From Candidatus Calditenuis fumarioli (GTDB taxonomy: Archaea; Thermoproteota; Nitrososphaeria_A; Caldarchaeales; Calditenuaceae), in assembly GCA_030059665.1 (NCBI GenBank), contig JANVYR010000001.1:1-64000 (forward strand): DNA of 64,000 nt. Reading direction: 5' to 3'. This document shows, piece after piece, positions 6,504 through 33,843 of the stretch (position 1 is its first letter; every line of letters begins with the position of its first letter). The notes beneath the pieces are model-generated. The model did no database searches and was not told the origin of the DNA. It was given only the letters and a program-made list of their open reading frames with translations. Both the position numbers and the translations under genes were made by a program.

Positions 6504-6596
6504 CCGCCGCTAACGGTATGAACGGAGGAGCGATAATGAAGCTCAAACATACAGTATATATTTCACGCTTGAAAGCAAAAGATACGTGAGCTGAAA

Positions 6597-8264: not shown

Positions 8265-8267
8265 GAG

Positions 8268-9278: not shown

Positions 9279-9311
9279 TCACGAGGATCTAAAGCCCCAT
9301 TGAATGATAGA

Positions 9312-10154: not shown

Positions 10155-10179
10155 GAGCGCTCGCCCTAACTGGTGCTCA

Positions 10180-10386
10180 TTAGCTTCTCACAGTTTTCCT
10201 CTCGACCTCGGGAGCTAACCCCTCTTCGGCAGCCAAGTGCCAGAGGGACCAATGCAACATCATATCGGCGTCCTCAAGCGCCTTCCTCAGACCCGGAGCG
10301 TCTGCCAGCTCAATTGCCTTCCAGACGAGCTCCCTTGCCTGCTTTACCAGCCTGACAACCTCTTCCGTGCTACCGCTCATGCTCAT
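10180..10386 (-). CDS. Small helical hypothetical protein (68 aa) coupled to the PaaK-like ligase
   Basis: TGATG 1-nt overlap with the ligase stop; amphipathic helices; DMMLHWSLWHL. Confidence 0.65.
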   Translation of the reverse strand: MSMSGSTEEVVRLVKQARELVWKAIELADAPGLRKALEDADMMLHWSLWHLAAEEGLAPEVERKTVRS

Positions 10387-11747: not shown

Positions 11748-11780
11748 GCCGTTTATTTCAAACGTGCTAAAATTTAGTCA

Positions 11781-11792
11781 TTGTTGCAACAA
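11781..11792. promoter_or_regulatory. Perfect 12-bp palindrome TTGTTGCAACAA in the divergent paaK/hpaB intergenic region (candidate operator)
   Basis: Self-complementary sequence next to the AT-rich promoter element at 11767-11777. Confidence 0.4.
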
Positions 11793-11937
11793 GTTTTGAT
11801 TAATCGTGCATCCCTCTCCTACGCGCGACTAATATGCCCTACAGGGCGTCCGGCGCAGACCAACACGTCCTGAGGACATAAGACCTATGCGTAATCACAC
11901 TTAAAAATTGCCAATAGGGGGGAACTACGCCGCGAAT

Positions 11938-13389: not shown

Positions 13390-13399
13390 GTCGATCGGA

Positions 13400-13924
13400 A
13401 TGGTCCAGGTTCCAATTGCTGAGGTCATAAAGAGGTTCATGAGGGCATATCCTCAGGGGGTCAGCATCGCAACGACTACGTACGACAAGCGGCCCTGGGG
13501 TCTGACGGTCAGCTCATTCACCTCAATATCCCTGGAACCTCCTCTGATAATGGTCTCCATCGCAAAGGGCTCGAAGAGCCACGAAGCGTTCACATCATCA
13601 GACAACTTGGCGGTCAACATGCTGTCGGCGGGTCAGGAGTCGCTGGCTGAGACATTCGCCGGTAAGGTGCCGCAGGAGCAAAGGTTCGAGCAGGTGAAAT
13701 ACCGGTTTGGGAGATCTGGTGCACCCATCCTTTCTGACGCATGCGCATACCTGGACTGTAGGAGATGGAGGGTCTACGAGGCTGGCGATCACAGCATTAT
13801 CCTCGGCGAGGTCATCGACGGAGGAGTTTACGGATCGCCGTTCCCACTAATCTACCACAACAGGAAATACACAACTGTTGCGTCGGCATACGTCGAGTCA
13901 ATGTACGCTCCTGACTTCTGGTGA
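13400..13924 (+). CDS. hpaC: Flavin reductase (HpaC/DIM6/NTAB family)
   Basis: GLTVSSFTSISLEPPL, GDHSIILGEV motifs. Confidence 0.9.
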   Translation: MVQVPIAEVIKRFMRAYPQGVSIATTTYDKRPWGLTVSSFTSISLEPPLIMVSIAKGSKSHEAFTSSDNLAVNMLSAGQESLAETFAGKVPQEQRFEQVKYRFGRSGAPILSDACAYLDCRRWRVYEAGDHSIILGEVIDGGVYGSPFPLIYHNRKYTTVASAYVESMYAPDFW

Positions 13925-13973
13925 GTGCCGCAGAACCTCTAACTTAATAGCAGCCCGGAGCGGTCGGTCCACG

Positions 13974-17693: not shown

Positions 17694-17809
17694 ATATCCG
17701 CCTCCGTCACCTGAGCGCATTTGGGTTCTGTTTAAGTTTTTTGCGACACAGTTGATGAGTGTGAAGAAAATATTTTAGGCAGAATGATAAAACCTTCGAA
17801 CGAGCGGAT

Positions 17810-18628
17810 ATGGCGAGAATAGTTGGAGCCTTTGCGACGTCCCACACGCCCCAGATCCTCGTCCAACCCAAGATCTCGGAGGAGTTCACGAGGCAGCTGC
17901 AGGAGGTCCACAAGGCGCTGATGGAGGTGGGGAGAAGAATCAGGGAGGCCAACGCCGACACGCTGATCGTCTTTGGCTCCGACCACATGGAGACCTTCTG
18001 GCTCAACAACTACCCGCAGCTTCTCCTATTCACCGGGACTGAGATCGGAGGGAAGTTCGCCGGCGTCGAACTGAAGTTGCCCGGAAACCCGGACTTGGCT
18101 AAGGAGCTGCTCTACGGGCTGATCGATTACGGCTTCGACGTCTCGTTCTCTCTGGAGCTGGAGCTGGACCACCCGTACATATCGCCGCTGTACTGGATAC
18201 TCAAGGGAGCACAACACGACTCGTATCAGCCCAAGGTAGTCCCCTTCCACATAAACAGCAACGTCGATCCGAGGATAAAGCCGAGGCGGGCCTACGAGCT
18301 CGGTGCGGCCATCAGGACCGTTCTGGAGAACTCCAAGCGGCCGAACAGGGTGGCGCTCATCGCGACGGGCGGACTATCCCACTACGTTGGAACGCCGTAC
18401 TACGGCAAGGTCGACGTCGAGGCGGACAACTTCCTGATTGAGAAGATGAAGGCGGGGAAGGGCTACGAGCTGGCGGACCTCACGACCGACTGGCTCGACG
18501 AGCACGGCGAGTTCGAGTTCAGGACCTGGCTTACCCTGCTGGGCGCGGTGAACAGCGCTCCGGCCGAGATCCTGACGTACCAGAGGGCCTGGCACGCCGG
18601 TTACTGCGTAGCGGCGTTCAAGGTCTGA
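17810..18628 (+). CDS. ligB: Class III extradiol ring-cleavage dioxygenase, catalytic (LigB-like) subunit
   Basis: TSHTP, SDH, LDH, GGLSH, GEFEFRTW reproduce the LigB His/His/Glu Fe ligands and catalytic His residues. Confidence 0.85.
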   Translation: MARIVGAFATSHTPQILVQPKISEEFTRQLQEVHKALMEVGRRIREANADTLIVFGSDHMETFWLNNYPQLLLFTGTEIGGKFAGVELKLPGNPDLAKELLYGLIDYGFDVSFSLELELDHPYISPLYWILKGAQHDSYQPKVVPFHINSNVDPRIKPRRAYELGAAIRTVLENSKRPNRVALIATGGLSHYVGTPYYGKVDVEADNFLIEKMKAGKGYELADLTTDWLDEHGEFEFRTWLTLLGAVNSAPAEILTYQRAWHAGYCVAAFKV

Positions 18629-18639
18629 GGTGAGCTGCA

Positions 18640-18939
18640 ATGGTGATCCTGTACGGCTACCCGGACCCGAAGTACCTGAAGCTGTACAAGCTGGGCAGGG
18701 CGATCCACCTGGACCCTCAGCTCAGGGAGAGGTTCAGGAAGGACCCTGAGAGCGTCATGAACGAGTTCGGGCTGTCGGAGGAGGAGAAGGAGCTCGTCAG
18801 GTCGGCGGACCCGGTCAAGATGTTCAAGGCAGGGATATCGCCGTACACGATCTTCTTCATCTGCTGGGAAGGCTACGGGCTGATGCACAAACCCGTCGAG
18901 GAGCAAATGCTTTACAAGAAGGTGGGCGAATCCCTCTGA
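18640..18939 (+). CDS. ligA: LigA-like small subunit of the extradiol dioxygenase
   Basis: RERFRKDPESVMNEFGLSEEEKELV...M...G..PY matches the LigA pattern; directly follows ligB. Confidence 0.75.
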   Translation: MVILYGYPDPKYLKLYKLGRAIHLDPQLRERFRKDPESVMNEFGLSEEEKELVRSADPVKMFKAGISPYTIFFICWEGYGLMHKPVEEQMLYKKVGESL

Positions 18940-18943
18940 ACTC

Positions 18944-19351
18944 ATGGTCCGATCGGTCACCCTGAAGTTCTACGTCGATTTTTTCGATGTCGACGCCAGC
19001 GGTTGGATCAACGGTGGCGTCTATTTCCAGTACAACAACCGACTCTTCGAGGAGCTGCTGAGGAGGAACGGGTACACCCTCAAGGGCCTCCTCGAGCAGG
19101 GGTACGGATTCCCACCCGTTCACTACAGCATCGACTACAGGTCCTCCTGCACCTACGGCGACGAGATCGTAGGAACCCAGAACGTCGTACGGGTCGGCCG
19201 CTCCTCCTTGGAGACGGAATTCTCATTCACAAGGGGTTCTGACGCTCTGCTCTGTCAGGGGAGGATAGTCCGCGTGATGACCGATATGCGCGAGAAACGC
19301 GCTGTCCCTATACCTGATGATCTGAAAGAGAGGCTGATGAAAGAGGAGTAA
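18944..19351 (+). CDS. Hot-dog fold acyl-CoA thioesterase (4HBT/YbgC family)
   Basis: DVDASGWINGGVYFQY, IDY...YGD, VGRSS motifs. Confidence 0.8.
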   Translation: MVRSVTLKFYVDFFDVDASGWINGGVYFQYNNRLFEELLRRNGYTLKGLLEQGYGFPPVHYSIDYRSSCTYGDEIVGTQNVVRVGRSSLETEFSFTRGSDALLCQGRIVRVMTDMREKRAVPIPDDLKERLMKEE

Positions 19352-19368
19352 AAAGAAGAGGGTTGGGG

Positions 19369-20595
19369 TCACTGTTCAGGTCTGTACGGCTCAACGGGCG
19401 ACGACTTGAAGACCACCTTAGGCACCCACTTGGCGCCGGGGTTGATCGCTCCGGGGTCACCCCGCTCGAACTTGTACAGTACTATCCGAGCTTCGGCGAA
19501 CTCGCCCCACTCGGTGTAGCGCAGCGGCCAGGCGAGGATCGGGTGCTCGAAACGGCTTGTCCTGATGTACTCGGCTATCTTCACCGGATCGACCGATCTG
19601 GTCTTCTCTATAGCGTTGGCGATCAGGTAGACGTTGAGGTAACCGGTGGCAGCGTGGATGTCGAACCACATCCCGGCCTCCTTGTAGAACTTCTCAGCGG
19701 TTTGCCTGTATTCTGGCGCGTCGAAGTTGATGCACGAGAACTCTAGTAGACCAGAGTTGATCAGGTTGTCCTCACCCAAGGCCGCAAGCCAGTTATCGAC
19801 CGGCGTGTACGACCCTATGAAGTACTTCGGCTTTATCCCCAGCTCGAGGGCCTGCTTGACGATCGCCGGCCCACCTGGTGGGTGTCCGAGCGTGATCACC
19901 ACGTCAGGCTTAATCGGTTCTATCTTCCTCAGATACGTCGTGAAATCCCTCTCCGTCTGGGGCGCCTCCTCGAGCTGATACGTGATGCCCTGGATGGTCT
20001 TGATCAGCCTCTCCGACGCGTCCCTCGTCGCAAAGCCCCACTCGTAAGAGGCCACTATGTTGGCTACGCTCTTCAGGCCCTGCTGTTGTATGAACTCGGC
20101 CACCGGAGCCACGTTCATGGGCGCAGCAGGGAGGCAGGTCCGGAAGACGTACCTGTTGCTGAGTGTCAATATCCTGTGGGAGCCTGCCATGTGGAGCAGC
20201 AGCGTTACCTGCGCCTTGTTGGCCTCTGGGGCAAGGGCTGCACCGATCCCGCTGGAGACGGGGCCCATAACGGCCACAACCTTATCGACCTCCACCATCC
20301 GCTGGAAAGCCGCAATCGCTTCCTTAGCGTCGTTCTTGTCGTCGTAGACGACCAGCTCCAGCTTTGCGCCTAAGATGCCCCCGCGTTCGTTGATCTCCTT
20401 AACAGCTAGCTGCGCACCAGCGAGGTGTTTCTTGCCCCACGTGGCGAAGGGGCCGGTAAGCGGTTCTAACGCGCCGATCTTGATCGTGGAGACGCCTAGG
20501 CTAGGCGCCGTCAGCATCGGCAGCACGACGGCCAGCGCTACGGCTACCGCCACTATCACAACAACAGCTATAACCAGCGCCTGTGTCCTCTTCAC
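19369..20595 (-). CDS. LivJ/LivK-type (PBP1) ABC substrate-binding protein, orphan
   Basis: N-terminal anchor; IKIGALEPLTG, EINERGGILG, YDDKND, YVFRT motifs. Confidence 0.85.
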   Translation of the reverse strand: MKRTQALVIAVVVIVAVAVALAVVLPMLTAPSLGVSTIKIGALEPLTGPFATWGKKHLAGAQLAVKEINERGGILGAKLELVVYDDKNDAKEAIAAFQRMVEVDKVVAVMGPVSSGIGAALAPEANKAQVTLLLHMAGSHRILTLSNRYVFRTCLPAAPMNVAPVAEFIQQQGLKSVANIVASYEWGFATRDASERLIKTIQGITYQLEEAPQTERDFTTYLRKIEPIKPDVVITLGHPPGGPAIVKQALELGIKPKYFIGSYTPVDNWLAALGEDNLINSGLLEFSCINFDAPEYRQTAEKFYKEAGMWFDIHAATGYLNVYLIANAIEKTRSVDPVKIAEYIRTSRFEHPILAWPLRYTEWGEFAEARIVLYKFERGDPGAINPGAKWVPKVVFKSSPVEPYRPEQ

Positions 20596-20677
20596 GGCGT
20601 AGTGGCTCTAGATAACCACAAGAAATACCTTTTCCTTGACCCTCTAAAATTATGCGACGTGATAAGCGGTCTCTCGG

Positions 20678-21388
20678 TCAGGTCTTGGCCCGCTGGAGCT
20701 GGAAGTAGCGGTAGCGTTGGCGCGCCTCCCGGAGAGTCAGACCAGACTTGACGGACTCGATGATCATCCGCTCCGCCTCCTCAACCTCCTTAGCGTCCTT
20801 TAGGACCTCCTGCGCCCTCTCCTTTGGAACCCTCAGCACGCCTGTGTCATCACCTATTATGAGGTCCCCAGGCCTCACCAAGATGCCGCCGACCTCCACG
20901 GGCACGTTGATGCCGTCTATCTGCAGCCTGTCCTTTCCCGTCCTGGGCAGGGTGCCCTTCGCGAAGATCGGGTATTTCATCTTCAGTATGTTGTCGTAGT
21001 CCCTGAAGACGCCGTCGATTACTGTCCCAGCTATCCCGAGCTTTATGGCCGTGAAGGTCAGGATGTCCCCCCAGCAGGTGTAAGTCGTCACGCCGCCGTT
21101 ATCGATTACGATGACGTCCCCTGGCTGAGCGATCTCGAAGAGGTAATCTCCTATGTCCTCCTTTGTGCCCTGCTCTGCCGGCGAAAGCGGAACGTACCTG
21201 ACCGTGATTGCTGGACCCACCATCTTCACTCCCTGAACCATCGCCTTTATTCCCTCCATAACCCCGTTGATCCTGTTGCGCTCCAGCGCGTCGGAGACGT
21301 TCGGTGTGGACAGATCCCTGAACGCCTCGACGACCTCCTTGGGAACCCGCTCTATCTGCCTGATAACCGTAGGGTTATAGTCGCCCAT
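20678..21388 (-). CDS. RraA/HMG-CHA aldolase (LigK/GalC-like), paralog 1
   Basis: STPNVSDAL, WGDIL, IDGVFRD, PGDLIIGDDTGV motifs. Confidence 0.85.
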   Translation of the reverse strand: MGDYNPTVIRQIERVPKEVVEAFRDLSTPNVSDALERNRINGVMEGIKAMVQGVKMVGPAITVRYVPLSPAEQGTKEDIGDYLFEIAQPGDVIVIDNGGVTTYTCWGDILTFTAIKLGIAGTVIDGVFRDYDNILKMKYPIFAKGTLPRTGKDRLQIDGINVPVEVGGILVRPGDLIIGDDTGVLRVPKERAQEVLKDAKEVEEAERMIIESVKSGLTLREARQRYRYFQLQRAKT

Positions 21389-21491
21389 GACCCTTCGAGC
21401 ATGACCCTTCGGGCGCCTTTTATTTTAACCGAACGGTTTCAATCCCCACATCCAGGGGATCAGATCCCATAATTTAAATAGTGGGGGATCT
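21386..21491. repeat. Cluster of direct and inverted repeats in the divergent aldolase promoter region
   Basis: CATGACCCTTCG x2 (21386-97, 21400-11); AACCG-AA-CGGTT (21427-38); ATCCCC-N7-GGGGAT (21442-60); AGATCCC-N16-GGGATCT (21462-91), which brackets TTTAAATA. Confidence 0.6.
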
Positions 21492-21502
21492 CGCATGACC
21501 AC

Positions 21503-22192
21503 GTGGTCAGCAGGAAGATAGTGGAGGAATTCGAGAAGATCCCGACCTCGAACGTCTCCGACGCGCTCGACAGGTTCAGGATCAAGGGCGGGTTGGAGGG
21601 GATCGTTCCGATAGTTGAGGGGTTGAGGATAGCTGGGACCGCGTTCACGGTGCGCTTCATTCCAGCAAGCCAGGTCGAACTCAAGCCATGGGTGACATAC
21701 ATCGACAAGGCCCAGCCAGGTGACGTGGTGGTCATCGACAACGGAGGCAGGACCTACTGCACCGTATGGGGAGGCCTTCTATCGGCGAGAGCGAGGGACA
21801 TGGGGCTGAAGGGAACGGTGATCGATGGCGTCTGTAGGGACGTCGACGTCATCAAGGCGCTGAGGTATCCCGTCTTTAGCAGGGGTAGGTTCATGATGAC
21901 CGGAAAGGACAGGGTGCAGCTCGCCGGTTTGAACGAACCCGTCACGATCGCCAACGTCCTCGTTAAACCGGGTGACATAATCGTGGCCGACGACAGCGGA
22001 GTAGTCGTGGTGCCCCAGGAGAAGGCGGAGGAGGTGCTGGAGGCCGCGCTGGAGATCTACGAGAAGGAGAGCAAGATCCTCGAGGAGGTGAAGAAAGGCG
22101 TGCCGCTGGCCGAGGCTAGGGCGAAGTACGGCTACGGAGAGCTCCAGAGGCCCAAGACGGCCGCGGGCCAGTCCCAGCAGGCCAAGACGTGA
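21503..22192 (+). CDS. RraA/HMG-CHA aldolase, paralog 2
   Basis: PTSNVSDAL, WGGLL, IDGVCRD, PGDIIVADDSGV motifs. Confidence 0.85.
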   Translation: MVSRKIVEEFEKIPTSNVSDALDRFRIKGGLEGIVPIVEGLRIAGTAFTVRFIPASQVELKPWVTYIDKAQPGDVVVIDNGGRTYCTVWGGLLSARARDMGLKGTVIDGVCRDVDVIKALRYPVFSRGRFMMTGKDRVQLAGLNEPVTIANVLVKPGDIIVADDSGVVVVPQEKAEEVLEAALEIYEKESKILEEVKKGVPLAEARAKYGYGELQRPKTAAGQSQQAKT

Positions 22193-22231
22193 TCGATCCC
22201 TGATCGAAATCGAACCCAAAGGTGAAGCATT

Positions 22232-24676
22232 TTGTCCTTTCTCCCTCCACTCAGGGTCCACGAGAGGGCCAGAGAGGTCGCCCTGAGATGGGTTGGTAGG
22301 CCCATCAAGAGGAAGGAAGACCTGAGGTTCTTAATGGGCAGGGGGCGGTTCGTCGACGACATCAAGTTCGATAACGCGCTCTACCTGGCCTTCGCGAGGA
22401 GCAAGGTAGCACACGCGAGGATCAGACAGGTCGACGTGAGCAAGGCCATGAGGCTGCCCGGCGTCAGGCTCGTCCTGACCGGAAAAGAAGTCGCCGAGCT
22501 GATCAAACCTTGGCCGCATCTCATTCCCACCCCACCATACTATGGAATTGCCGTTGACAAGATAAGATACCAGGGAGAGCCGGTGGCCATGGTCGTTGCG
22601 GAGAGCAAATACGTAGCTGCGGACGCAGCCGAGATGATCGAGGTCGATTACGAACCGTTGAAACCCGTTGTCACGATAGAGCAGGCGCTCGCACCGGACG
22701 CGCCTCAGATACACGACGGGTTCGAGCGAAACGTCGCTTGGAGCAAACGGTACGTGTACGGGGATGTGGAGAACGACTTCGCTAGGGCCGATCGCATAGC
22801 CAGGGGGAGGTACTACTTCCACAGGTTCATATCTTCACCCCTTGAGCCAACCGCGCTGGCAGCGTACTACGACAGGAGCACTGGGGTGCTCACGATTTAC
22901 GACCAGCACCAGCAGGCACCGATGTACCACGCCAGGTACTCGAGGGTGATAGGCATCCCTTCGAACAGGATCAGCATCAAGGTCCCGGATCTGGGAGGTG
23001 GCTTCGGGAACAAGCAGAGCGTGTACCCGTACACCGCACTTGTGGCACTTGCATCGATGCTCACCAACAGGCCTGTGAAGTACGTCGCGTCAAGGTCGGA
23101 GGACCTGATGGCGCTCATGCATTCCCCTGACAGGATCACGGAGGCCGAGTTCGCCTACAGATCTAACGGCGAGATCTTATCCGTCAGGATGAAGCTCTAC
23201 GACAACTTCGGCGCATACCTCAGGCACCCCGACCCTCAGAACGTCACGAGGGCCTTCCCCTCGATCACCGGACCATACAGAATCAAATCCATCGAGATAG
23301 ACGCCACGGGGGTCTTCACCAACACCTGTCCGACGGGACCCAACAGGGGGTTCGGGCAGCAGCACGCGAGCTTCACCTTTGAGAGGATGGTGGACAAGGT
23401 GGCTGAGGAACTGGGGATGGATCCCGCGGAGCTGAGGTTCCTCAACTTCATCAGGCCGGAGCAGATGCCGTACGAGACACCCATAGGCTCCGTTTACGAC
23501 GGCGGTGATTACCCGACCTTGCTTAGGAGGGCACTCGAGCTGGCAGGGTACGAGCAGCTGCGCCGCGAACAGGAGGTCATGCGGAGCAAGGGGGTGCTGA
23601 TGGGGATAGGGGTCGCGGCCATCGTAGAGGGTGGTGCGACGGCTTTCGGCTTCGCGCGTCTCTGGGGTGGGGATCCCAAGCTGGTATCTGGGTACGCCTC
23701 CATGGCAGAAGCGGCATCCCTGAGGGTCCTTCCCGATGGATCGGTTCTGGTAGCGATGGGGACCACTCCCCAGGGTCAGGGGCACGAGACGGTCGCGGCT
23801 CAGATCGTGGCCGATTTCCTGGGCGTGACGCCGGACGACGTCATAGTGATGCCAGGCTTCGACAGCGACGACCATCCCTACAGCGCCTCGGGTTCCGGCA
23901 CGTACGCTAGTAGGTTCTCGCAGATCGGCGTGGGTGCGCTCGTCGGCGCCGCTCTGAAGGTGAGGGAGAAGGTCCTTGCTATCGCGGCCCACAAGCTCGA
24001 GGCCAACCCGGCCGACCTCGTTCTCGAGGACGGAAGGATCTACGTGAAGGGTCATCCGGAGCGGAGCATCACGTTCAGGGAGGTGGCGAGGATAGCGCAC
24101 ACCCGCCTGGGAGAGCTTCCGCCAGACACGGAGGCGGGCCTCGAGGCATATTACACATACAACTTCCCATACAGCAAGCCCGTAGGCGACGACCTGAGGG
24201 GGAACCTCTGCAGCTCGTACAGCGCGCTCGCCGGTGTGGCCGCAGTGGTCGTCGACGCTGAGACAGGACAGATAGGTGTGAAGAAGCTGGTTGTGGTCCA
24301 CGACGCAGGGAGGGCCATAAACCCGCTGATACTCGAGGGTCAGGTGCACGGAGCCGTAGCGAACGGCCTAGGCGGTGCCCTCTTCGAGGGGTTCGAGTAC
24401 GACGAGGACGGGAACCTCCTGACGTCGACCTACATGGATTACCTTCCCATCTCAGCGACCGAGATGCCAGAGCTGATACTCGATCACATGGAGACGCCAT
24501 CTCCCTTCACCGTGCTCGGAGCAAAGGGGTCAGGTGAGGGAGGAACGATACTGCTGCCGGTGCTGATCGGTAACGCAGTCAACGACGCGCTCAGACCTCT
24601 CGGCGTCGAGGTCACCACATCCCGCCTCACACCCCACAACGTCTGGAGGATGATCAAGGAAAGGCGCAGCACCTGA
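22232..24676 (+). CDS. Xanthine dehydrogenase family molybdopterin-binding large subunit 1 (CoxL/HmfA-like; not form I CODH)
   Basis: RKEDLRFLMGRGRFVDD, GGGFGNK, GPNRGFG, QGQGHET, SGTYASR, KGSGE motifs. Confidence 0.9.
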   Translation: MSFLPPLRVHERAREVALRWVGRPIKRKEDLRFLMGRGRFVDDIKFDNALYLAFARSKVAHARIRQVDVSKAMRLPGVRLVLTGKEVAELIKPWPHLIPTPPYYGIAVDKIRYQGEPVAMVVAESKYVAADAAEMIEVDYEPLKPVVTIEQALAPDAPQIHDGFERNVAWSKRYVYGDVENDFARADRIARGRYYFHRFISSPLEPTALAAYYDRSTGVLTIYDQHQQAPMYHARYSRVIGIPSNRISIKVPDLGGGFGNKQSVYPYTALVALASMLTNRPVKYVASRSEDLMALMHSPDRITEAEFAYRSNGEILSVRMKLYDNFGAYLRHPDPQNVTRAFPSITGPYRIKSIEIDATGVFTNTCPTGPNRGFGQQHASFTFERMVDKVAEELGMDPAELRFLNFIRPEQMPYETPIGSVYDGGDYPTLLRRALELAGYEQLRREQEVMRSKGVLMGIGVAAIVEGGATAFGFARLWGGDPKLVSGYASMAEAASLRVLPDGSVLVAMGTTPQGQGHETVAAQIVADFLGVTPDDVIVMPGFDSDDHPYSASGSGTYASRFSQIGVGALVGAALKVREKVLAIAAHKLEANPADLVLEDGRIYVKGHPERSITFREVARIAHTRLGELPPDTEAGLEAYYTYNFPYSKPVGDDLRGNLCSSYSALAGVAAVVVDAETGQIGVKKLVVVHDAGRAINPLILEGQVHGAVANGLGGALFEGFEYDEDGNLLTSTYMDYLPISATEMPELILDHMETPSPFTVLGAKGSGEGGTILLPVLIGNAVNDALRPLGVEVTTSRLTPHNVWRMIKERRST

Positions 24677-24772
24677 CTTGTCCGCGTGACCCACGTTCCC
24701 GGAGAACCTCAATCCGAGTTTTTGGTTGGAGATCGAAGGTTTAATAACCAACATCGAACCCTCAAGGACGAC

Positions 24773-25681
24773 TTGTTCAGCCACCACCTGACCCTCAGCA
24801 GGGAGATCAAGGAGTACGCGGGCCTTCTCGAAGGGGTCGTAGACCTTCACGTCCACACGGCGCCGGACGTGCTGCAGAGAGCGGTGGACGACCTCGAGTA
24901 CCTGGAGGCCCTTCGGGAAGTCGGCTATGTAGCGTACCTCTCCAAGAACCACTTCACCGAGACTGCCAGCAGGGCGTACATTCTCAGCAGGCACAGCGGA
25001 AAGGTCAGGGTGCTCGGGGGCATAGTGCTTAACTCGCCCGTTGGAGGGCTGAACCCCTCGGCGGTCGACAAGGCGCTGGCAATGGGTGCGGCTGAGGTGT
25101 GGATGCCCACTCTTGACGCGGAGAACCACATCAGGACCTTCGGCTCGGCGACGCTTCCCACCACCAGCAGAGTCAGGTCCTTCAGGTCTTACAAATCAGC
25201 AGGCGGAATGATCAGGATCCTGGACGACTCCGGCGAGCTGAAGCCTGAGGTGCTGGAGATCCTGGAACTCGTGGCTGAGAGCGACGCCATATTGGGCACC
25301 GGTCACCTGTCGTTGCAGGAGGTTTACAAGTTGGTCGAGGCCGCAAGGAAGGTCGGCGTCAAGAAGATCCTCGTGACGCATCCGCACTTCAAGGCTACGA
25401 GGTTCAGCACGGAGGACCAGCAGCGACTTGCGGGGATGGGAGCTCTGATGGAGCACTGCGCGGTTGCGGGGTATGACCCTAAGGAGCTGGCTGAGGACAT
25501 CAGGCGCGTAGGTCCAGGAAACTGCATCATATCGAGCGACGCCGGCCAGCCGCACAAGGGTCACCCGGTAGACGTCCTGCTGAAGATGATCGCGGAGCTG
25601 AAGGAGCAGGGCATCTCGGACTCAGATATCGAGAGGATGACCAAGAGGAACCCGTCCAGGCTGGTGGAGCACCTGCTCTGA
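24773..25681 (+). CDS. DUF6282-like uncharacterised metal-dependent TIM-barrel protein
   Basis: DLHVHTAPD, KNH, WMPT, TGH, THP, EHC, SSDAGQ. The ORF is open to 24686; TTG 24773 is preferred because TTTAATA lies at ~24740. Confidence 0.7.
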   Translation: MFSHHLTLSREIKEYAGLLEGVVDLHVHTAPDVLQRAVDDLEYLEALREVGYVAYLSKNHFTETASRAYILSRHSGKVRVLGGIVLNSPVGGLNPSAVDKALAMGAAEVWMPTLDAENHIRTFGSATLPTTSRVRSFRSYKSAGGMIRILDDSGELKPEVLEILELVAESDAILGTGHLSLQEVYKLVEAARKVGVKKILVTHPHFKATRFSTEDQQRLAGMGALMEHCAVAGYDPKELAEDIRRVGPGNCIISSDAGQPHKGHPVDVLLKMIAELKEQGISDSDIERMTKRNPSRLVEHLL

Positions 25682-25683
25682 AA

Positions 25684-27279
25684 ATGCGCACCTCCGTGAT
25701 TCCCGAGGCGGTCCAAGAGCGCTTCAACGTAGTCGAGCTGCACCTCGACAGATGGATCAGGAACGGCCTCGCTGAGCGAGTTGCGCTGATAGATCTGGAA
25801 TCGGGCGAGGAGACGACGTACCGCGAGCTCCACAGACTCGCCTGCAGGTTCTCGAACGTGCTTGCTGAACACTCGCTCGAGCTGTTCGATAGGGTCATGA
25901 TAGCGATGAGGGACAGCAGGCTCTCGGTCGCCTCCTTCCTGGGCGCCATGAGGGCCGGAATGGTGCCCTTCTACGTCAACCCGAACTACGGCGTCGACGA
26001 ATTCAAGTTCTTCATCAGGGACAGCCGCTGCAGGGCGATCATCGCAGACCGCTCGACTGCTGAGAAGCTGGAGGTAGCCACAAGGGAAGTGGGCAAGCAC
26101 GTGAAGGCGATGGTGAACGTCGACCGCGATGGCTTCAGCGATCTCCTCGAGGATTTCAGGGACGAATACCCGCTTGCGGAGACGCATAAGGACGATCCCG
26201 CGTACATAGTGTACACATCAGGCACAACGGGCCGACCTAAAGGGGCGGTTCACCTACATCACGACCTGGTTTACGCCGTTGGCCCCTATGTCTCCAACGT
26301 GATAGACGTCAGGGAGGGCGACGTCTTCTATTCCGCGTCTAAACTGTATTTCTCTGCGGGAAGGATGTTCGGGCTCCACATACCGCTGATGTGCGGTGCG
26401 ACCAGCTTGATAGACCCGGAGAGGTCAACGCCAGAGCGCGTGCTGGCGGCGATTTCAGGACGCGACGTAACGCACCTGCTCTGCGTCCCCACCCTTTACC
26501 TCCGGATCCTCAACCACCTGGAACGACTGGGGGTCCGGACGCTGGAGCGGAGGGCCTTGAGGTACTGCGTCTCGGGCGGCGAGCCACTGCCTGCCTCGGT
26601 CTTCGAGAGGTGGAGAGAGGTCACGGGTCTTGAGATACTGAACGGTATAGGAAGCTCGGAGGCCGAGTGGATCTTCATCTCCTACAGGCAGGGAGAATGT
26701 AAGCCTGGCTCCTCGGGCAAGGTCATACCGGGATGGGAGGCCAAGTTGGTAGACGAATCCGGACAGGAGGTGACCGAGCCGTATAAAGTGGGCGTTCTTT
26801 ACATAAGCTCCGACAGCGTCGCCGCCTTCTACTGGAGGAGGAGCGAGGAGACCAGACGGACGTTCATCGGTAGGTGGTACAACACGATGGACATGCTGTA
26901 CTTCGACCAGGACGGGTACCTGCATTACGTGGGAAGGAGCGACGACCTGTTCAAGGTGCACGGGATGTGGGTCTCACCTGCGGAGGTGGAGGACGCCATC
27001 CTGGCAACGGGCCTGGTGCAGGAGTGCGCGGTGATCGGTCTACCCACGTCCGAGGGTCTGACGGAGGTCGTGGCGTTCGTTGTCCCTAAGGACCCATCAA
27101 ACCAGCGGCTCGAGGAGGAGCTGAAGGCAGCTCTAGCAGACCGAATACCGAGATACAAAATTCCCAGTAAGGTCCTAACGGTCGATGAGATACCGAAGAC
27201 CGCAACCGGAAAGGTCAGGCGGACCGCGCTGAGGGAGATGGCGATGAGCGGGCTCATCAAGCGGGCGGGTGAGCTGTGA
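25684..27279 (+). CDS. Benzoate-CoA ligase family AMP-forming ligase 2
   Basis: YTSGTTGRPKGAVH, SGGEPLP, NGIGSSE, GRSDD, KTATGKVRR motifs. Confidence 0.9.
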   Translation: MRTSVIPEAVQERFNVVELHLDRWIRNGLAERVALIDLESGEETTYRELHRLACRFSNVLAEHSLELFDRVMIAMRDSRLSVASFLGAMRAGMVPFYVNPNYGVDEFKFFIRDSRCRAIIADRSTAEKLEVATREVGKHVKAMVNVDRDGFSDLLEDFRDEYPLAETHKDDPAYIVYTSGTTGRPKGAVHLHHDLVYAVGPYVSNVIDVREGDVFYSASKLYFSAGRMFGLHIPLMCGATSLIDPERSTPERVLAAISGRDVTHLLCVPTLYLRILNHLERLGVRTLERRALRYCVSGGEPLPASVFERWREVTGLEILNGIGSSEAEWIFISYRQGECKPGSSGKVIPGWEAKLVDESGQEVTEPYKVGVLYISSDSVAAFYWRRSEETRRTFIGRWYNTMDMLYFDQDGYLHYVGRSDDLFKVHGMWVSPAEVEDAILATGLVQECAVIGLPTSEGLTEVVAFVVPKDPSNQRLEEELKAALADRIPRYKIPSKVLTVDEIPKTATGKVRRTALREMAMSGLIKRAGEL

Positions 27280-28163
27280 CCGCACCAGAGGACCTCTGGA
27301 TCAACGACGTCCACATTCACGTCAATCCGTTCTCGAAGTTGAAGAGGCCGGCGTTCGAGTTCTTCGCGACCAACCCGGACTTCCGGGAGAACTGGCAGAG
27401 GATCGAACGTGACCCGGAATACCTCATCCGGAGGATGGACGAGGACAGGGTGAAGAGGGCAGTCCTGATCAACTACGTCGCTGAGGAAGTCATGGGATAC
27501 GACGTCTCTACGAACCAATACGTATACGAGTACTGCAGGGATCACAGGGACAGGCTCCTGCCCTTTGCTGGCGTGGACGTTCGCATGGCCCCTCGGGAGT
27601 TCAGGGAGCAGCTCGAGACGGCGTACTCCAAGTACGAGGTCGAGGGCTTCAAGCTCCACCCTGTCCACCAGCTCGTCTACCCGAACCAGTACAGGGAGGA
27701 GTACGGCGAGCGGGCCGTGAGGAACCTCGAGACCTTCTACCAGTTCTGCAGCGACCACGGATTGCCCGTTACCGTCCACACTGGAACGTCCATGTTTCCG
27801 GGAGCCAGGCTGAAGTACGGTCAGCCTATACACCTCGACGACGTGCTGGTCGACTTCCCGAGGCTGAGGCTTCTGATGGCGCACGGCGGCCGTCCCTTCT
27901 GGATGGACGAGGCCTTCTTCCTCATGCGACGCCACAGGAACCTCTACCTAGACGTCTCTGGGATCCCACCGGGCAAGCTGCTCGAGTACTTCCCGAGGAT
28001 CGAGGAGGTCGTTGACAGGGTGTTATTTGGGAGCGACTGGCCGAGCCCCGGCGTGAAGGGGATGAGGGAGAACGCCCTCGGGATCTGGAAACTGAACGGG
28101 CTGTCGGAGGAGGCCAAGTTGCGGATACTGGTGAGGAACTTCGACGAGTTCTTCAAACGGTAG
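27276..28163 (+). CDS. Amidohydrolase-2 family protein
   Basis: DVHIH, GFKLHP, VHTG, AHGGRP, LYLDVSG, FGSDWP motifs; GTGA overlap with the ligase. Confidence 0.85.
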   Translation: MTAPEDLWINDVHIHVNPFSKLKRPAFEFFATNPDFRENWQRIERDPEYLIRRMDEDRVKRAVLINYVAEEVMGYDVSTNQYVYEYCRDHRDRLLPFAGVDVRMAPREFREQLETAYSKYEVEGFKLHPVHQLVYPNQYREEYGERAVRNLETFYQFCSDHGLPVTVHTGTSMFPGARLKYGQPIHLDDVLVDFPRLRLLMAHGGRPFWMDEAFFLMRRHRNLYLDVSGIPPGKLLEYFPRIEEVVDRVLFGSDWPSPGVKGMRENALGIWKLNGLSEEAKLRILVRNFDEFFKR

Positions 28164-28180
28164 ATCCGTAGGTGAGCTCT

Positions 28181-29407
28181 TCAGCCGGCTGAGCGGAGCC
28201 GCTGCACCAGCTCGACCACCTCCTCATCCGTCAGGTCCCTCTTCAGCAGCATGGCCCTCGACTTGATCGCCGTTAGTAGCCGATCGACTTCCTGCTCGCT
28301 GACCTCTATGCCCAGCTTCTGGAGCTTGTAGCGCAGTGAGTCTCGTCCGCTCTTCTTCCCGATTACCACCCGCACAGGAGGCTGACCGACCAGCTCGGGA
28401 AGGAACGGGAACACCTCGTTCGGATACTCGTGCTCGACGTTGACCCACCACCCGGCAACGATCCCGGACTCGATGTGGAATATCCTGTCACCTACGACCG
28501 GATGTTGGGGCTCGAGTTTCACCCTTGAGAGCTCCTCCACCAGCTTCGAGAGCTTCTTCAGCCTTTCCGTCCTGACGTTGACCTCGACTCCGTAAAGAAG
28601 CTTCAAGGCCATCACCGTCTGCTCGAGCGACGCGTTCCCGGACCTCTCACCTATCCCGTTGACGGAGACGTGAACCGTCTCCACGCCGTTAACCACGGCG
28701 AAGACGGTGTTGGCTACAGCGAGGCCGAAGTCGTTGTGAACGTGGATCTCCAGCGGTTTCCCCACACGGGACCTGAAGAGGCTGACGAAGCGTGCTATCG
28801 CGTGAGGGGAGCATGCCCCGAAGGTATCGACGAGGACGAGCGAGTCCATGTGACCTTCGGTTGCCACCGAGTTGATGAGCCGCCAGGCGGTCTGGAAAGG
28901 AGCCCTGGTCGAGTCTATCGTGAAGAAAGCCACATAGAGCCCGTGTTCGTGTGCGTACCTGGTGGCGTCGACTGCCAGCTGGATGGCCCTCTCCTCATCC
29001 CATCTGTAGGCCCTTCGCAAGAGGTGATCGCTGGACGGTATCTCGACCACCACTCCATCCACGTCGCACTTGAGAGCCAGGTCGATGTCGCTCCTCAAAC
29101 ACCTCGAGAACGCGAAGACCTTGGAGCTGAGACCGAGTTTTGCGATCTCCTTCACGGCCTCGAAGTCCTCCTGGGAGACCGCGGGCATACCCGCCTCGAT
29201 CCTGTCAACCCCGGCCTCATCCAGGGCCCTGGCGATCTCGAGCTTCTCGGCTTTCCTGAACGCTACACCAGCCTGCTGCTCACCGTCCCTCAGCGTCACG
29301 TCGTGAACGTACACCCGTTTCGGCATGTCACGCAGCTGCCGCAGAACCTCTTCATCGAAGTTGTAATGACTTACGAAATACCCTTCTCCGACATGCTTTT
29401 CGTTCAT
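28181..29407 (-). CDS. DRE-TIM metallolyase (homocitrate/isopropylmalate/citramalate synthase-like), no LeuA regulatory domain
   Basis: DVTLRDGEQ, IEAG, HVHND, GIGERSGN, GKKSG motifs. Confidence 0.8.
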   Translation of the reverse strand: MNEKHVGEGYFVSHYNFDEEVLRQLRDMPKRVYVHDVTLRDGEQQAGVAFRKAEKLEIARALDEAGVDRIEAGMPAVSQEDFEAVKEIAKLGLSSKVFAFSRCLRSDIDLALKCDVDGVVVEIPSSDHLLRRAYRWDEERAIQLAVDATRYAHEHGLYVAFFTIDSTRAPFQTAWRLINSVATEGHMDSLVLVDTFGACSPHAIARFVSLFRSRVGKPLEIHVHNDFGLAVANTVFAVVNGVETVHVSVNGIGERSGNASLEQTVMALKLLYGVEVNVRTERLKKLSKLVEELSRVKLEPQHPVVGDRIFHIESGIVAGWWVNVEHEYPNEVFPFLPELVGQPPVRVVIGKKSGRDSLRYKLQKLGIEVSEQEVDRLLTAIKSRAMLLKRDLTDEEVVELVQRLRSAG

Positions 29408-29768
29408 CTGTTTGCGTTCACCCTACCCATCTAATATCCTTTGTTAGCGAATTGCGTTGGACCGCAGATACCGGACTGAAACGTCGCCAGATGGTGCTGC
29501 GGAAAACGGTGCTCGGCGATCGGCATCACGACGTCAATGCGCACGGCGATGGGCGCGGTGAGCGATGAAAATGACCGTAGAATCGAGAGAATCGAGCGGG
29601 GCAAAGCACCGACGTCCCAACGCCATTCCGTCCTCAGCGGTTACGTCCAACCCTCACTCGGTTACAGACCGATCAGGGAGAATCGCCGGAAATTCCCGGG
29701 GGATTATGCCGAACGGCGCCCTGCGGGATAGAATTATAACGGGCTGGGTCAGGTGATGCAAAGGGCAT

Positions 29769-30422
29769 TTGACGGTGCGGATCTCGGGGACAGCGCTGGC
29801 CAAGGTGATCAGGCACGCCGTCTCGAGCCCGAGGAGGGAGGTGGCCGGGTTCCTCATCGGAAGGGAGAGGGGCGAGGAGCTGCTGGTGACCGACGCGGTG
29901 ACTGGCCACCAGACGGGCTCGCTCGGGCACGTAGCGCTGGACGAGATGGTGATGGCACGGCTCACCGAGCTCCTCCACTCCTCCAACACGGGGCTCTACA
30001 TCGTCGGCTGGTACCACTCGCACCCCGGGATAGGCGTGTTCATGTCGGCCATAGACTACGCCACGCAGCTGAACTACCAGCGCCTTTACCCCCGATCGGT
30101 GGCGCTCGTGGTGGACCCCGTCGAGGTCCTCAACTCGAGGGCCCTGACGCCGGCCTCGATGAGGTTCTTCAGGGTGGAGGAGGACGGCTCGGTCGTCGAG
30201 CTGAAGGCGGTGATCGAGGGCCCGGTCAGGATCCCGAGGCTGGCTGAGGAGTCCAGGCCGAGCGACTACGATGAGCCGGCGGAGATGTGGGGCTCCTACG
30301 TAGAGGGCCTGAGCGGTGGCGGACCCTCGTCATCCGTGGGCACTCCCAGGCTTTTCACCGTCAGGGTAGCATCGGTTATCAGCCAGCTCATAGCACGGCT
30401 CACGTGGTGGAGGACCAGATGA
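29769..30422 (+). CDS. Rpn11-like JAMM/MPN+ metalloprotease (deubiquitylase-type)
   Basis: REVAG Glu plus an intact GWYHSHPGIGVFMSAID (HxH-x7-S-x2-D) motif, followed by TQ..YQ and ALVVDP as in Rpn11/Csn5-type proteins. TATA-like TTATAA at ~29734. Confidence 0.9.
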   Translation: MTVRISGTALAKVIRHAVSSPRREVAGFLIGRERGEELLVTDAVTGHQTGSLGHVALDEMVMARLTELLHSSNTGLYIVGWYHSHPGIGVFMSAIDYATQLNYQRLYPRSVALVVDPVEVLNSRALTPASMRFFRVEEDGSVVELKAVIEGPVRIPRLAEESRPSDYDEPAEMWGSYVEGLSGGGPSSSVGTPRLFTVRVASVISQLIARLTWWRTR

Positions 30423-31243
30423 GCGGCGAGCGCAAACGGGTGATAATCAGGCGGAGGCCCGTCGAGGGCCAGGAGGAACAGGAGCCGTCTGCACCACTGG
30501 ACCCGTCCCAGCTGAGGGGCACTGTGCTAGAGCCGCAACCACAGGAGCAGCCGCAGACGGAGCAGACGACCGACGTGGAGCTGGAGGCGGCGCTGCGCAG
30601 GGCGAGGGAGGTCTACGACGAGGCGGTGCAGAGGTACAACGAATTCGTCTCGAGGCTAGAGAGGCTGAGGGAGAGGGACAGGAGCGTCCAGAGCGCCTAC
30701 ATGAAGAGCGAGGAGGTCTTCAGGCTGGCGGTCGTCAAGAGGAAGCTCGACGAGCTGAACGCTGAACGGAGCGCGCTCCTCACCGCAGCCGGGCCGGTCG
30801 AGCAGAGGCTAACGCAGGCGATCGCGGACCTCGAATCGGTCGTCTCAGATCTGGAGCAGATGCTCTTCGACAGGCTGGTGGACCTCGAGGAGCTGAACGC
30901 GATGAGGGGGTCAGGAGTTGCGGTCAACGACTCGGACGTCAGGATCGTCGAGGAGGAGTGCAACAGGATAAGGTCCGAGATAGCGAGGACCAGGTCCAGG
31001 ATCGACGAGCTGAGGAAGAAGGTGGAGGTCCTCAGGAGCCTGCCGAGGACGATTTACAAGATCACCACGCACTCGGAGCTCGCCGAGGAGTACTACCGGC
31101 AGCTCAAGTCGCAGCGGAACATCGACGAAGCCAAGCTGGAGGAGCACGTGAAGAAGATCATGCAGGAGGAGCAGGTGCCTTGGGAGTACGCGGTGCTCTA
31201 CCTCTACAAGCGGCTGATGAAGAGGGTGGAGCGGCCGCAGTGA
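30419..31243 (+). CDS. Hypothetical long coiled-coil protein (274 aa)
   Basis: ATGA overlap with the JAMM stop; E/R/K/L/Q-rich heptads after a P/E/Q-rich N-terminus. The ORF-track extension to 30287 is judged spurious. Confidence 0.75.
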   Translation: MSGERKRVIIRRRPVEGQEEQEPSAPLDPSQLRGTVLEPQPQEQPQTEQTTDVELEAALRRAREVYDEAVQRYNEFVSRLERLRERDRSVQSAYMKSEEVFRLAVVKRKLDELNAERSALLTAAGPVEQRLTQAIADLESVVSDLEQMLFDRLVDLEELNAMRGSGVAVNDSDVRIVEEECNRIRSEIARTRSRIDELRKKVEVLRSLPRTIYKITTHSELAEEYYRQLKSQRNIDEAKLEEHVKKIMQEEQVPWEYAVLYLYKRLMKRVERPQ

Positions 31244-32403
31244 AGCAGACGACGGAGGGTAACCAGGGCACCGAGTTCGAGTTCGAGCTGCGGTACGACC
31301 TCTGGAGGCTTGCGACGTTCGTACCCAACGAGCGCTACCCAGTACACCGGTGGTTCCACTTCAAGGAGGGCTTCTCGAGGGACCTAGTCGAGCTGCTGGC
31401 GAGGAGGTTCGGGCTGGAGGAGGGGGACGTGGTGCTGGACCCCTTCGTCGGGTCGGGAACGACGCCTCTCACGTGCATGGAGCTCGGCCTCGAGGGGATC
31501 GGGATCGACGCTTCACCACTCATGGTGATGATAAGCCTCGCCAAGACGAGGAGGTACGACCCGGAGGCGCTCGAGAGGCACGCGGTGCGGGTTGTGGAGC
31601 GCGCAAGGCCGGTCCACGAACTGGGCTCGCTGAACCCTCTGGTGAGGAAGGCGTTCAGGCCCGACGTCCTGAAGGAGGTGCTAGGGGTGAGGGAGGAGGT
31701 GATCTCGGTGGAGGACGAGGACGCGCGGCTCTTCCTGACGCTCGCGCTGATGAGGGCTGCCATGTCCTGCTCCTACGCGGTCAAGGACGGATCCGTGATC
31801 AGGATCGAGAGAAGGCCCATACCTCCTTTCCGGAAGGTCCTGAGGTCAACCATCAGGTCTATGATCGAGGACGTCAGGAGGATCTCGCTCAGGTCGGGCC
31901 CAGCGCAGATATTCCTCGGAGACGCTAGGGAGATGAGCCTGATAGGTGACGAAACTGTGGACGCGGTGATCACCTCGCCGCCGTACCTGAACAAGATCGA
32001 GTACACGCGGGTCTACGAGATCGAGCTCGAGCTCTTCGCCGGCGGCGCCAAGCCGGAGCTCCTCAGGTCCTACATCGGGCTCTCGCCGAGGATCAGGAAG
32101 GTCTCGCCCGAGGCGGAGGGGCTGCCGGACTCGGCCATCGCCTACTTCATCGACATGGAGCAGTCGCTCCGGGAGATCATGAGGGTCCTGAGGGCGGGGG
32201 GAAAGGCAGCCCTTGTGGTCTCGGGAGGGGTTTACCCCAACACGGTCGTGGAGGTCGACCTGATCCTGGCGAGGATGGCCCGCAGGCTCGGCTTCCATGT
32301 GGAGAGGATACTGGCCCTCGGAAAGCGGGTGGCCACCTACGGCCGCGTCCACAGGATAGGCGAGTCGAGGGAGAGCGCTGTCATGCTGCGGAAGGAGGGA
32401 TGA
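31240..32403 (+). CDS. N4-cytosine/N6-adenine DNA methyltransferase 1
   Basis: HRWFHFKEGFS, DPFVGSGTT (motif I) before TSPPY (motif IV); GTGA overlap with the coiled-coil gene. Confidence 0.8.
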   Translation: MKQTTEGNQGTEFEFELRYDLWRLATFVPNERYPVHRWFHFKEGFSRDLVELLARRFGLEEGDVVLDPFVGSGTTPLTCMELGLEGIGIDASPLMVMISLAKTRRYDPEALERHAVRVVERARPVHELGSLNPLVRKAFRPDVLKEVLGVREEVISVEDEDARLFLTLALMRAAMSCSYAVKDGSVIRIERRPIPPFRKVLRSTIRSMIEDVRRISLRSGPAQIFLGDAREMSLIGDETVDAVITSPPYLNKIEYTRVYEIELELFAGGAKPELLRSYIGLSPRIRKVSPEAEGLPDSAIAYFIDMEQSLREIMRVLRAGGKAALVVSGGVYPNTVVEVDLILARMARRLGFHVERILALGKRVATYGRVHRIGESRESAVMLRKEG

Positions 32404-32418: not shown

Positions 32419-33156
32419 TCAGCCGCTGGCGCTGATCGCCGCAGCCCCCTCCTGATCGACGCGTTCCCGATCGACCCTCTCCTTGGGTATCGTGACGCGA
32501 ATCCTGACCTTGTCGCCGTCGCGGAGCCCGTACTTCCCCCGCAGGTAGACGGGCGAGATCACCTCGATCACGTCCTCTCCGTAGTGGGACCGCTCGATGA
32601 ACAGGATCGCGCAGAGCTCCGAGTCGTTGAACGTGCCCGTTATCGCCCTGAGGCCTCCGTAGGTCCTCGAGCCGTTCCGGAAGCCCTCTATCCTGATGTC
32701 CGCCAGGCGCTCGAGAACCCTCCGGTTGGCGATCGCGTCCACCGAGAGGAGCCGGACGTTCAGAGTGCCGGGATAGGGGTCGAAGCCGAGCTTCTCTCGG
32801 AACTGCTGCCGGTATCCGGGTAGCGACATGTAGTACGCGCCCTCCCCGAGACCGGAGAAGACCTTTCCCTCGATCACGTAGTCCAAGGGCCTCTCGAGCA
32901 CGAGCCTGAGGTCAGAATATAGGTCTACCAGCTGGCGGTAGCCCAGCTCGGTGATCCGGGCGTAACCCGTCCGGCCCACGTTCCTCCTCTCGATCAACCG
33001 CTCCTTCTCGAGCCTGATCAGGACCCTCGAGGCCGACTGCTGCGAGGTGCCGAGGACCCTCGCCAGGTGGGGAGTCGAGATCCTGACCATTCCGGTGATG
33101 CCGTTCTGTGACGCCAGGAAGATCAGCGCCTTCAGGGCGAGCAGGTTCAGAGCCAT
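32419..33156 (-). CDS. ribK: CTP-dependent riboflavin kinase with N-terminal HTH (RbkR-type)
   Basis: HTH (STPHLARVLGTSQQSASR) plus GKVFSGLGEGAYY, PYPGTLNV, EVISPVYLR, LRDGDKV. Confidence 0.92.
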   Translation of the reverse strand: MALNLLALKALIFLASQNGITGMVRISTPHLARVLGTSQQSASRVLIRLEKERLIERRNVGRTGYARITELGYRQLVDLYSDLRLVLERPLDYVIEGKVFSGLGEGAYYMSLPGYRQQFREKLGFDPYPGTLNVRLLSVDAIANRRVLERLADIRIEGFRNGSRTYGGLRAITGTFNDSELCAILFIERSHYGEDVIEVISPVYLRGKYGLRDGDKVRIRVTIPKERVDRERVDQEGAAAISASG

Positions 33157-33216: not shown

Positions 33217-33843
33217 TCAGCTTACCGCTATCGTCTCGTCTCTGATGACGCCGTTCGGGCCGATCAGGAGGACGTCGATGCCGTTGCCGCTGCCGCTGTC
33301 GCGGGCCATCGAGGCCCTGAGCGCCTTAGTCGCGAGCTCGTAGATCTCGCTCGAGGACATCCCCTGCCTGTACTCGCCCTCGAGGACGCCCGCAGCGATC
33401 TCCGCACCTGTCCCGACCACGGCGAAGTCGTCCTCGATCATCGAGCCCATCGCATCCAGCACGATCACGTGGGGTCCGGTGTCGTCGAAGCCGCCGACGA
33501 TGGTCTCCGTGAGGTACGGGAAGTACCTGTTGCCGAAGAGGAGGTTCGAGACGACCTTCGCTATCACCCTGACGCTGGGCTGCCTCCTCTCCTCGATGGT
33601 GTAGAGGTTCACGAGGAACCGGACGTCCCTGATCAGGTTCTGCATGTCCGAGACGAAACCGGCACATGCGGCCCCGACCTTCGGCGTGATCTGGAAGACC
33701 TTCCTCACGTTCTTGGACATCACGAAGTAGCCGTACGTCAGCCTCTTCTCGGAGGCCAGGACGATCGCGTCCTTGCCCTTGATGCCGAGCGTCGTCGCTC
33801 CCGGGTACGGGTACTGGAACGCCATTCCGCTCACGTCGTCCAA
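33217..33843 (-). CDS. psmB: Proteasome beta subunit, Thr1->Ala (predicted non-catalytic)
   Basis: G|ATTLGIK, ASEKR, K33, AGFVSD, GTG, RDSGSG. An alternative start is ATG 33825. Confidence 0.92.
   Translation of the reverse strand: MDDVSGMAFQYPYPGATTLGIKGKDAIVLASEKRLTYGYFVMSKNVRKVFQITPKVGAACAGFVSDMQNLIRDVRFLVNLYTIEERRQPSVRVIAKVVSNLLFGNRYFPYLTETIVGGFDDTGPHVIVLDAMGSMIEDDFAVVGTGAEIAAGVLEGEYRQGMSSSEIYELATKALRASMARDSGSGNGIDVLLIGPNGVIRDETIAVS

Follow-up and report, generated by a model that had tools for sequence, protein, structure and literature searches.

The window analysed here, positions 1–64,000 of contig C1 in the three-contig, 1.57-Mb assembly of Candidatus Calditenuis fumarioli (G000), carries an Rpn11-like JAMM gene that is followed on the same strand by genes for a helical protein and an amino-methyltransferase (MTase). 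The explanation that fits best, and that we regard as probable with good confidence, is that the first two genes are an ancestral Rpn11–partner operon which has become detached from the genes for ubiquitin (Ub), the conjugating enzyme (E2) and the activating enzyme (E1), and which now lies ahead of a core MTase gene; the link to the MTase would then be a by-product of rearrangement and not a new system. The three genes are as follows:

29769–30422, + strand: JAMM (Rpn11-like) gene, 217 aa, start TTG, with an alternative GTG at 29775 two codons on
30419–31243, + strand: helical partner gene, 274 aa, start ATG
31240–32403, + strand: amino-methyltransferase gene, 387 aa, start GTG

As read directly from the sequence, the JAMM stop and the partner start share an ATGA overlap and the partner stop and MTase start share a GTGA overlap, each of 4 nt; the GTG at 31240 is the sole in-frame start of the MTase ahead of residue 80. 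The original prediction had reported these junctions, together with an intact JAMM motif, and had read the locus as a deubiquitylase separated from its Ub operon and coupled instead to a coiled-coil protein and a DNA methyltransferase. Its observation was correct and its interpretation half right.

The JAMM gene as an Rpn11 ortholog

The JAMM protein matches the Pfam JAB family at 1e-17, and its closest solved structure is CsRpn11 of Caldiarchaeum subterraneum (PDB 6fju/6fjv; 148 bits, E 2.6e-42, residues 2–149 aligned), followed by yeast Rpn11 (74 bits), CSN5 (60 bits) and AMSH (34 bits), and the likeness to CsRpn11 proposed in the original prediction is borne out by alignment. The catalytic residues E24, H83, H85, S93 and D96, corresponding to the motif E...HxH...S...D, are all present and are invariant across 20 orthologs. 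A second JAMM protein is encoded on contig C2, with 38% identity to the first, and it reaches 69 bits against the CsRpn11 structure, compared with 148 bits for the window protein, which on sequence grounds identifies the window gene as the CsRpn11 ortholog. In a sample of the phylum, each of the 59 other Caldarchaeales genomes had an Rpn11 ortholog scoring >247 bits, and the best score outside the order was 115 bits. CsRpn11 has been reported to act as a Zn isopeptidase, taking Ub off conjugates, and in C. subterraneum to trim a nine-residue Ub propeptide as well (PMC5654768, PMC6043591). By orthology, the window protein would be a Zn-dependent JAMM isopeptidase that strips archaeal ubiquitin from conjugates.

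The helical partner protein

Four parts make up the partner: at the N-terminus a basic motif, KRVIIRRR, then a disordered P/Q/E linker and a set of three long helices, and at the C-terminus a small helical domain that bears the LP..I..TT and QVPWEYA motifs. Its AlphaFold2 (AF2) model (pLDDT 84, pTM 0.73) has a disordered N-terminus, helices at residues 47–96, 103–164 and 171–206, and a helical C-terminal domain. Proteins of its family are recognised by a length of 256–283 aa, a basic motif of the form K/R-I/V-I/V-I/L-K/R at the N-terminus, long helices, and LP..I..TT and IPREYA-type motifs towards the C-terminus; the protein encoded here shows all of these features and matches the family profile at 3.2e-92. 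In an alignment of 23 orthologs (A1), E146, L149, E178, R185, T216, Y257 and A258 are invariant. The model and these motifs suggest that the strand-like basic segment at the N-terminus and the motifs at the C-terminus may serve as docking surfaces.

Of the 76 genomes of the order, 71 have an ortholog of the partner, and none of the 43 high-quality ones lacks it. In the phylum sample it is present in 59/59 other genomes of the order, and one marginal match (E 9e-6) was found among 341 genomes outside it. A search of 1.84 billion representative proteins with the partner profile returned only 14 clusters, all of 197–274 aa, followed by a gap and then by non-specific coiled-coil matches. Comparison of coordinates places the partner directly downstream of Rpn11 and co-oriented with it in 42 of 60 sampled genomes, namely 15/15 in family f1 (one across a contig break), 17/17 in f2, 3/3 in f3 and 7/25 in f4, where the arrangement is confined to genus g14; throughout family f1 the Rpn11 stop overlaps the partner start. 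The partner is restricted to the Caldarchaeales and ancestral to the Rpn11 operon, and it coexists with an adjacent Ub operon elsewhere in the order. It is not a replacement partner, and the notion that Rpn11 had been coupled to it instead of to the Ub genes has to be given up.

The partner belongs to no Pfam family, and searches of Pfam, NCBIfam, PADLOC and PDB sequences gave only coiled-coil noise, including CdvA at E 0.27. With the full-length protein, Foldseek found nothing in the PDB at E ≤ 0.001, and a wide VIA-align search, in which helical proteins need Z ~13, matched nothing more specific than helical hairpins and bundles (Mrs2, CHMP4B, Snf7, prefoldin and others) at Z 10–11.6. The C-terminal domain (residues 198–274, pLDDT 76) was considered as a UBA-like ubiquitin-binding domain, an idea for which the fold searches gave no support: its best match was to the AROD helices of RPA1 at Z 5.8, and no UBA/CUE match was obtained. 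The predicted complex of Rpn11 (alignment A2) with the partner (A1) scored 0.01, below the mark, and counts neither way. The three key papers on the archaeal Ub system make no mention of the helical partner, and no paper in the library searched was found with its C. subterraneum locus tag. This lineage-specific helical protein would be translated from the same message as Rpn11 and is probably a non-catalytic accessory or adaptor of Rpn11, with which it would associate physically. A separate speculation is that the partner acts as a regulator, its basic beta-strand motif at the N-terminus fitting into the groove of Rpn11 that takes the ubiquitin tail.

Eukaryotic JAMM deubiquitinase complexes assemble through helical bundles. 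The pairs Rpn8–Rpn11, CSN6–CSN5 and Abraxas/KIAA0157–BRCC36 resemble the archaeal pair by analogy only, in that a dedicated non-enzymatic protein is encoded together with a JAMM isopeptidase and is presumed to act with it; unlike these partners, the archaeal protein has no MPN domain and no detectable similarity to them in sequence or specific fold.

Dispersal of the ubiquitin genes

Whole-genome Pfam searches found no Ub, E1 or E2 gene in the window, and no RING gene around the triad, as had been predicted. The Ub system of this genome is complete but dispersed, with all its other parts outside the window. An intact operon of Ub (78 aa), E2 and E1 lies at C1:98.5–100.5 kb, 68 kb downstream of the triad and on the same strand, and both RING proteins, which resemble the two RING proteins of C. 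subterraneum, are encoded farther along the same contig; the same searches revealed further Ub-system copies on contig C2. The dispersed genes with mapped coordinates are:

C1:98523–98759 (L006 6524–6760): ubiquitin gene
C1:264554–264799, + strand: small RING-finger protein
C1:817870–818805, − strand: membrane-anchored RING protein

The reference for this layout is the C. subterraneum cluster (rpn11l CSUB_C1473, ubl, e2l, e1l, srfp; PMC3082918, PMC5654768, PMC6043591). The present genome has the same Rpn11-type JAMM, with about half of 148 aligned core residues identical and all catalytic residues kept, and has Ub, E2, E1 and RING proteins as well; a C. subterraneum-like genome also carries the helical gene downstream of Rpn11 (L038 8460–9254), and there both RING genes follow E1 within ~2 kb (L038 11944–12168 and 13356–14129). 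Unlike that cluster, the genes here are spread over one contig, with Rpn11 and its partner at 30 kb, Ub–E2–E1 at 98.5 kb and the RING genes at 265 and 818 kb; in addition, Ub lacks a C-terminal propeptide, the C-terminal tail of Rpn11 has diverged and the MTase is appended to the Rpn11 operon.

A divergent placement of Rpn11 has been described for C. subterraneum (PMC3082918, PMC5654768). Similarly, among 11 loci from other genera, 8 have Rpn11 and its partner reading away from Ub, E2 and E1, which run in that order in the opposite direction; the C. subterraneum-like genome, whose Rpn11 has 202 aa as in C. subterraneum, is one of them. This juxtaposition, a contextual and not a biochemical feature, is absent from the window and also from G016 (L045, C16:120000–138000), where no Ub, E2 or E1 gene lies within 8 kb of Rpn11 and its partner. 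In G036 (L040, C3:374000–392000), only Ub of the three remains next to Rpn11. The order has therefore seen more than one detachment of the Ub operon. Within the genus (g1), Ub–E2–E1 lies downstream of the triad on the same strand in this genome and also, 17 kb off, in G024 and G027, and the changed relative orientation indicates an inversion or translocation and not a simple insertion. The original prediction had allowed that the Ub operon was displaced or lost; displacement is supported, since the operon is divergent beside Rpn11 in most other genera, and loss is contradicted by its being intact.

In the Ub genes of this genome and of L038–L053, Ub ends at Gly-Gly in the four f1 genera checked (in G036, Gly-Gly plus one Arg), while in families f2–f4 it carries a C-terminal propeptide of 6–15 aa. 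As Ub in f1 already ends at Gly-Gly, Rpn11 is presumably needed there for deconjugation only and not for precursor processing. A mature Ub may also have relaxed selection for keeping Rpn11 beside the Ub gene.

Contig C2 carries a second, non-canonical ubiquitin-like cluster at 190.8–194.6 kb (L007 4881–8531), which comprises a Prok-RING-like protein of 99 aa, two helical or winged helix-turn-helix-like proteins of 280 and 361 aa, a ubiquitin-like–E2 fusion of 272 aa and the JAMM paralog of 156 aa, and which adjoins a type IV pilus/archaellum-type ATPase gene and a membrane gene. Within the sampled order, JAMM proteins of this C2 type were matched solely in this genus (G000, G024 and G027). Further coiled-coil genes stand directly 3' of E1 in this genome (L006 8509–9072, C1:100.5–101.1 kb) and 3' of srfp in the C. 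subterraneum-like genome (L038 12173–13387). There seem to be several uncharacterised helical proteins in the archaeal Ub cluster.

The methyltransferase

The MTase has motif I (VLDPFVGSGTT) at residues 63–73 and motif IV (SPPY, within TSPPYL) at residues 247–250. It matches Pfam N6_N4_Mtase (PF01555) at 3.7e-14 (53.6 bits vs a cut-off of 26.7), with the match confined to the motif I region, and the PADLOC/REBASE-type model for a Type II MTase, PDLC03224, at 1.1e-48 over residues 21–266. Weak matches to Trm-G10 were also obtained, and RNA m2G enzymes share the same motifs; from the model matches, DNA would be the substrate. The protein resembles orphan Type II N6_N4_Mtases (PF01555; CcrM, TTHA0409/PDB 2zie) in its motif I FxGxG and motif IV (S/D)PPY, in the lack of an adjoining cognate nuclease and in its vertical inheritance. 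Unlike them, it has motif I before motif IV, the reverse of the PF01555 beta-class order, with a helical insert of ~170 residues between the two. AGCT and GATC methylation have been reported in thaumarchaeal metagenome-assembled genomes (PMC8919816), which is no more than a lead to what this MTase and its paralog in the window (61424–62377) may methylate.

An ortholog is present once per genome in 74 of the 76 genomes of the order, at 45–60% identity, and the family occurs across the Nitrososphaerota at 43–50% identity. In the other genera the MTase gene lies 50–215 kb from the Rpn11–partner pair or on another contig, it looks stand-alone, and its neighbours there give no functional hint; adjacency to the pair is found in genus g1 only. 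By sequence and distribution it has the profile of a vertically inherited housekeeping orphan methyltransferase and not of a mobile defence gene. A paralog with 31% identity, itself a core gene of the order, is encoded in the window at 61424–62377.

Gene order in the genus and probable co-transcription

The order JAMM–partner–MTase is kept in all six genomes of the genus with data; a seventh, 66% complete, is without the partner and the MTase. The MTase starts 0–35 nt from the partner stop in every congener, and in three of them it starts 13–35 nt past it. The other subclade of the genus has different surroundings on both sides of the triad; its flanks map in this genome to C3:42–49 kb and to C1:565 and 831 kb, and the triad is intact in both. 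It follows that in this genus the triad behaves as a unit, which is most simply explained by co-transcription. The original prediction had called for a comparison of synteny across the Caldarchaeales, and the result is that the triad persists within the genus, with the MTase not adjacent in other genera. It had also proposed that the linkage would be incidental if a normal Ub operon existed elsewhere and no relative kept the triad; such an operon does exist in the genome, but congeners do keep the triad.

The following features surround the triad:

29732–29739, + strand: TATA-box-like AATTATAA, ~30–37 nt 5' of the JAMM start, candidate promoter of the three-gene unit
upstream of the JAMM gene, − strand: homocitrate/isopropylmalate-synthase-family gene (profile searches)
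32419–33156, − strand: helix-turn-helix (HTH)–riboflavin kinase gene, convergent, 3' of the MTase and between it and the proteasome beta gene
33217–33843, − strand: proteasome beta subunit gene, 814 nt beyond the MTase

In four congeners, A-T-rich TATA-like boxes (CATATATAT / CATAAATAC) precede the JAMM gene by a comparable distance. AATTATAA may act as promoter for all three genes, which are likely co-transcribed, judging by their junctions and conserved order. In the synteny comparison, none of the three flanking genes (homocitrate-synthase-like, riboflavin kinase, proteasome beta) was matched beside the triad in relatives. The proteasome beta gene does lie 0.8 kb past the MTase, as had been pointed out, but this neighbour is not conserved even within the genus and its proximity was dropped as a meaningful feature. 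The GC content of the window is 0.46–0.52 over 1–10000, 0.58–0.61 over 10000–30000 and 0.63–0.66 over 30000–64000; the triad is placed at the second of these steps, which fits an earlier remark about an island junction.

Alternative explanations

The original prediction had raised the idea of a JAB/coiled-coil/MTase module for DNA modification or defence. In such a module, Ub deconjugation and the methylation of DNA or RNA would be coupled, one controlling the other; the MTase might, for instance, be a ubiquitylation substrate kept active by Rpn11, with the helical protein as a bridge. Alternatively, the three genes would form a defence set. The tight junctions, with 4-nt overlaps here and 0–35 nt across the genus, the survival of the triad in both subclades although both flanks have changed, and an MTase that matches a Type II DNA MTase model without a nuclease beside it, as an orphan with a possible regulatory role would, are what such a module would look like. 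We nevertheless consider it very unlikely, since no other genus of the order has this core MTase gene linked to Rpn11, and there Rpn11 and its partner work without it. The antiviral JABs of CBASS (Cap3) and Bil (BilC) share the JAMM fold and catalytic motif with the window protein, but the matches to them are weak (NF050170, the Cap3 model, 16.7 bits vs a cut-off of 200; BilC, E 0.0015), and models of defence JABs reach E 1e-6 or weaker compared with 2.6e-42 for CsRpn11. Pfam annotation of the neighbours revealed no nuclease, CD-NTase, E1–E2 fusion or other defence gene adjoining the triad, nor Cap2 or BilABD nearby, and no mobile-element signature is associated with it; neither an adjacent nuclease, effector or Cap2/CD-NTase/Bil partner nor a patchy mobile distribution, as expected of restriction-modification or JAB-based defence, was found. 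With weak Cap3 and Bil matches, no partner genes and three vertically inherited core genes, the defence reading is unsupported. A narrower form of the idea, in which Rpn11 and its partner were rewired within the genus to act with the orphan MTase, for instance through reversible ubiquitylation that controls genome methylation, is likewise judged very unlikely; if true, it would be an archaeal precedent for the coupling of ubiquitin and DNA methylation known in eukaryotes.

It could also be held that the genes share no expression at all, the MTase being served by an internal promoter of its own and the overlaps being an accident of a compact genome. The gaps of 13–35 nt before the MTase in three congeners and its stand-alone appearance in other genera speak for this, whereas in this genome there is no intergenic room for such a promoter, and the three genes keep their order and orientation in the whole genus although the flanks have turned over; we regard this explanation as rather unlikely.

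Ancestral operon and later accretion remain the preferred account, and several observations weigh against it. Triads with different flanks are kept across two fairly divergent subclades, in which JAMM identity is only 53–59%, and this could reflect selection for linkage and not operon inertia alone. The C-terminal tail of Rpn11 in this genus has diverged from a helix conserved elsewhere, which could signal an altered interaction. In f4 genera other than g14, Rpn11 and the partner are ~10 kb apart or on separate contigs, and with adjacency lost in much of that family a tight coupling of the two is not obligatory; the fold searches, moreover, gave the partner only generic helical-bundle matches. 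Under the preferred account, genes 1 and 2 would be the ancestral two-gene Rpn11 operon of the Caldarchaeales, a rearrangement in the ancestor of the genus would have split this pair from the divergent Ub–E2–E1 operon, and the pair would then have landed directly upstream of the housekeeping amino-methyltransferase gene; a single message covering all three genes most likely now starts at a promoter just 5' of the JAMM gene. The linkage of the MTase is an operon accretion at the level of the genus, and none of the evidence points to a shared function; Rpn11 and its partner are probably without a functional tie to the MTase.

Implications

The locus gives no evidence for a new defence or epigenetic module. 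Here the archaeal ubiquitin system that has been studied best is found in a naturally rearranged form, which shows that the Ub cluster can disperse without losing any of its components. In family f1, where Ub is made in mature form, the role of Rpn11 presumably narrows to deconjugation. The ubiquitin system itself was already known, and what is added here is the Rpn11–partner pair as a conserved unit upon dispersal: these two genes stay side by side where the rest of the cluster has scattered, and the view of the helical partner as a missing accessory of archaeal Rpn11 gains strength from this.

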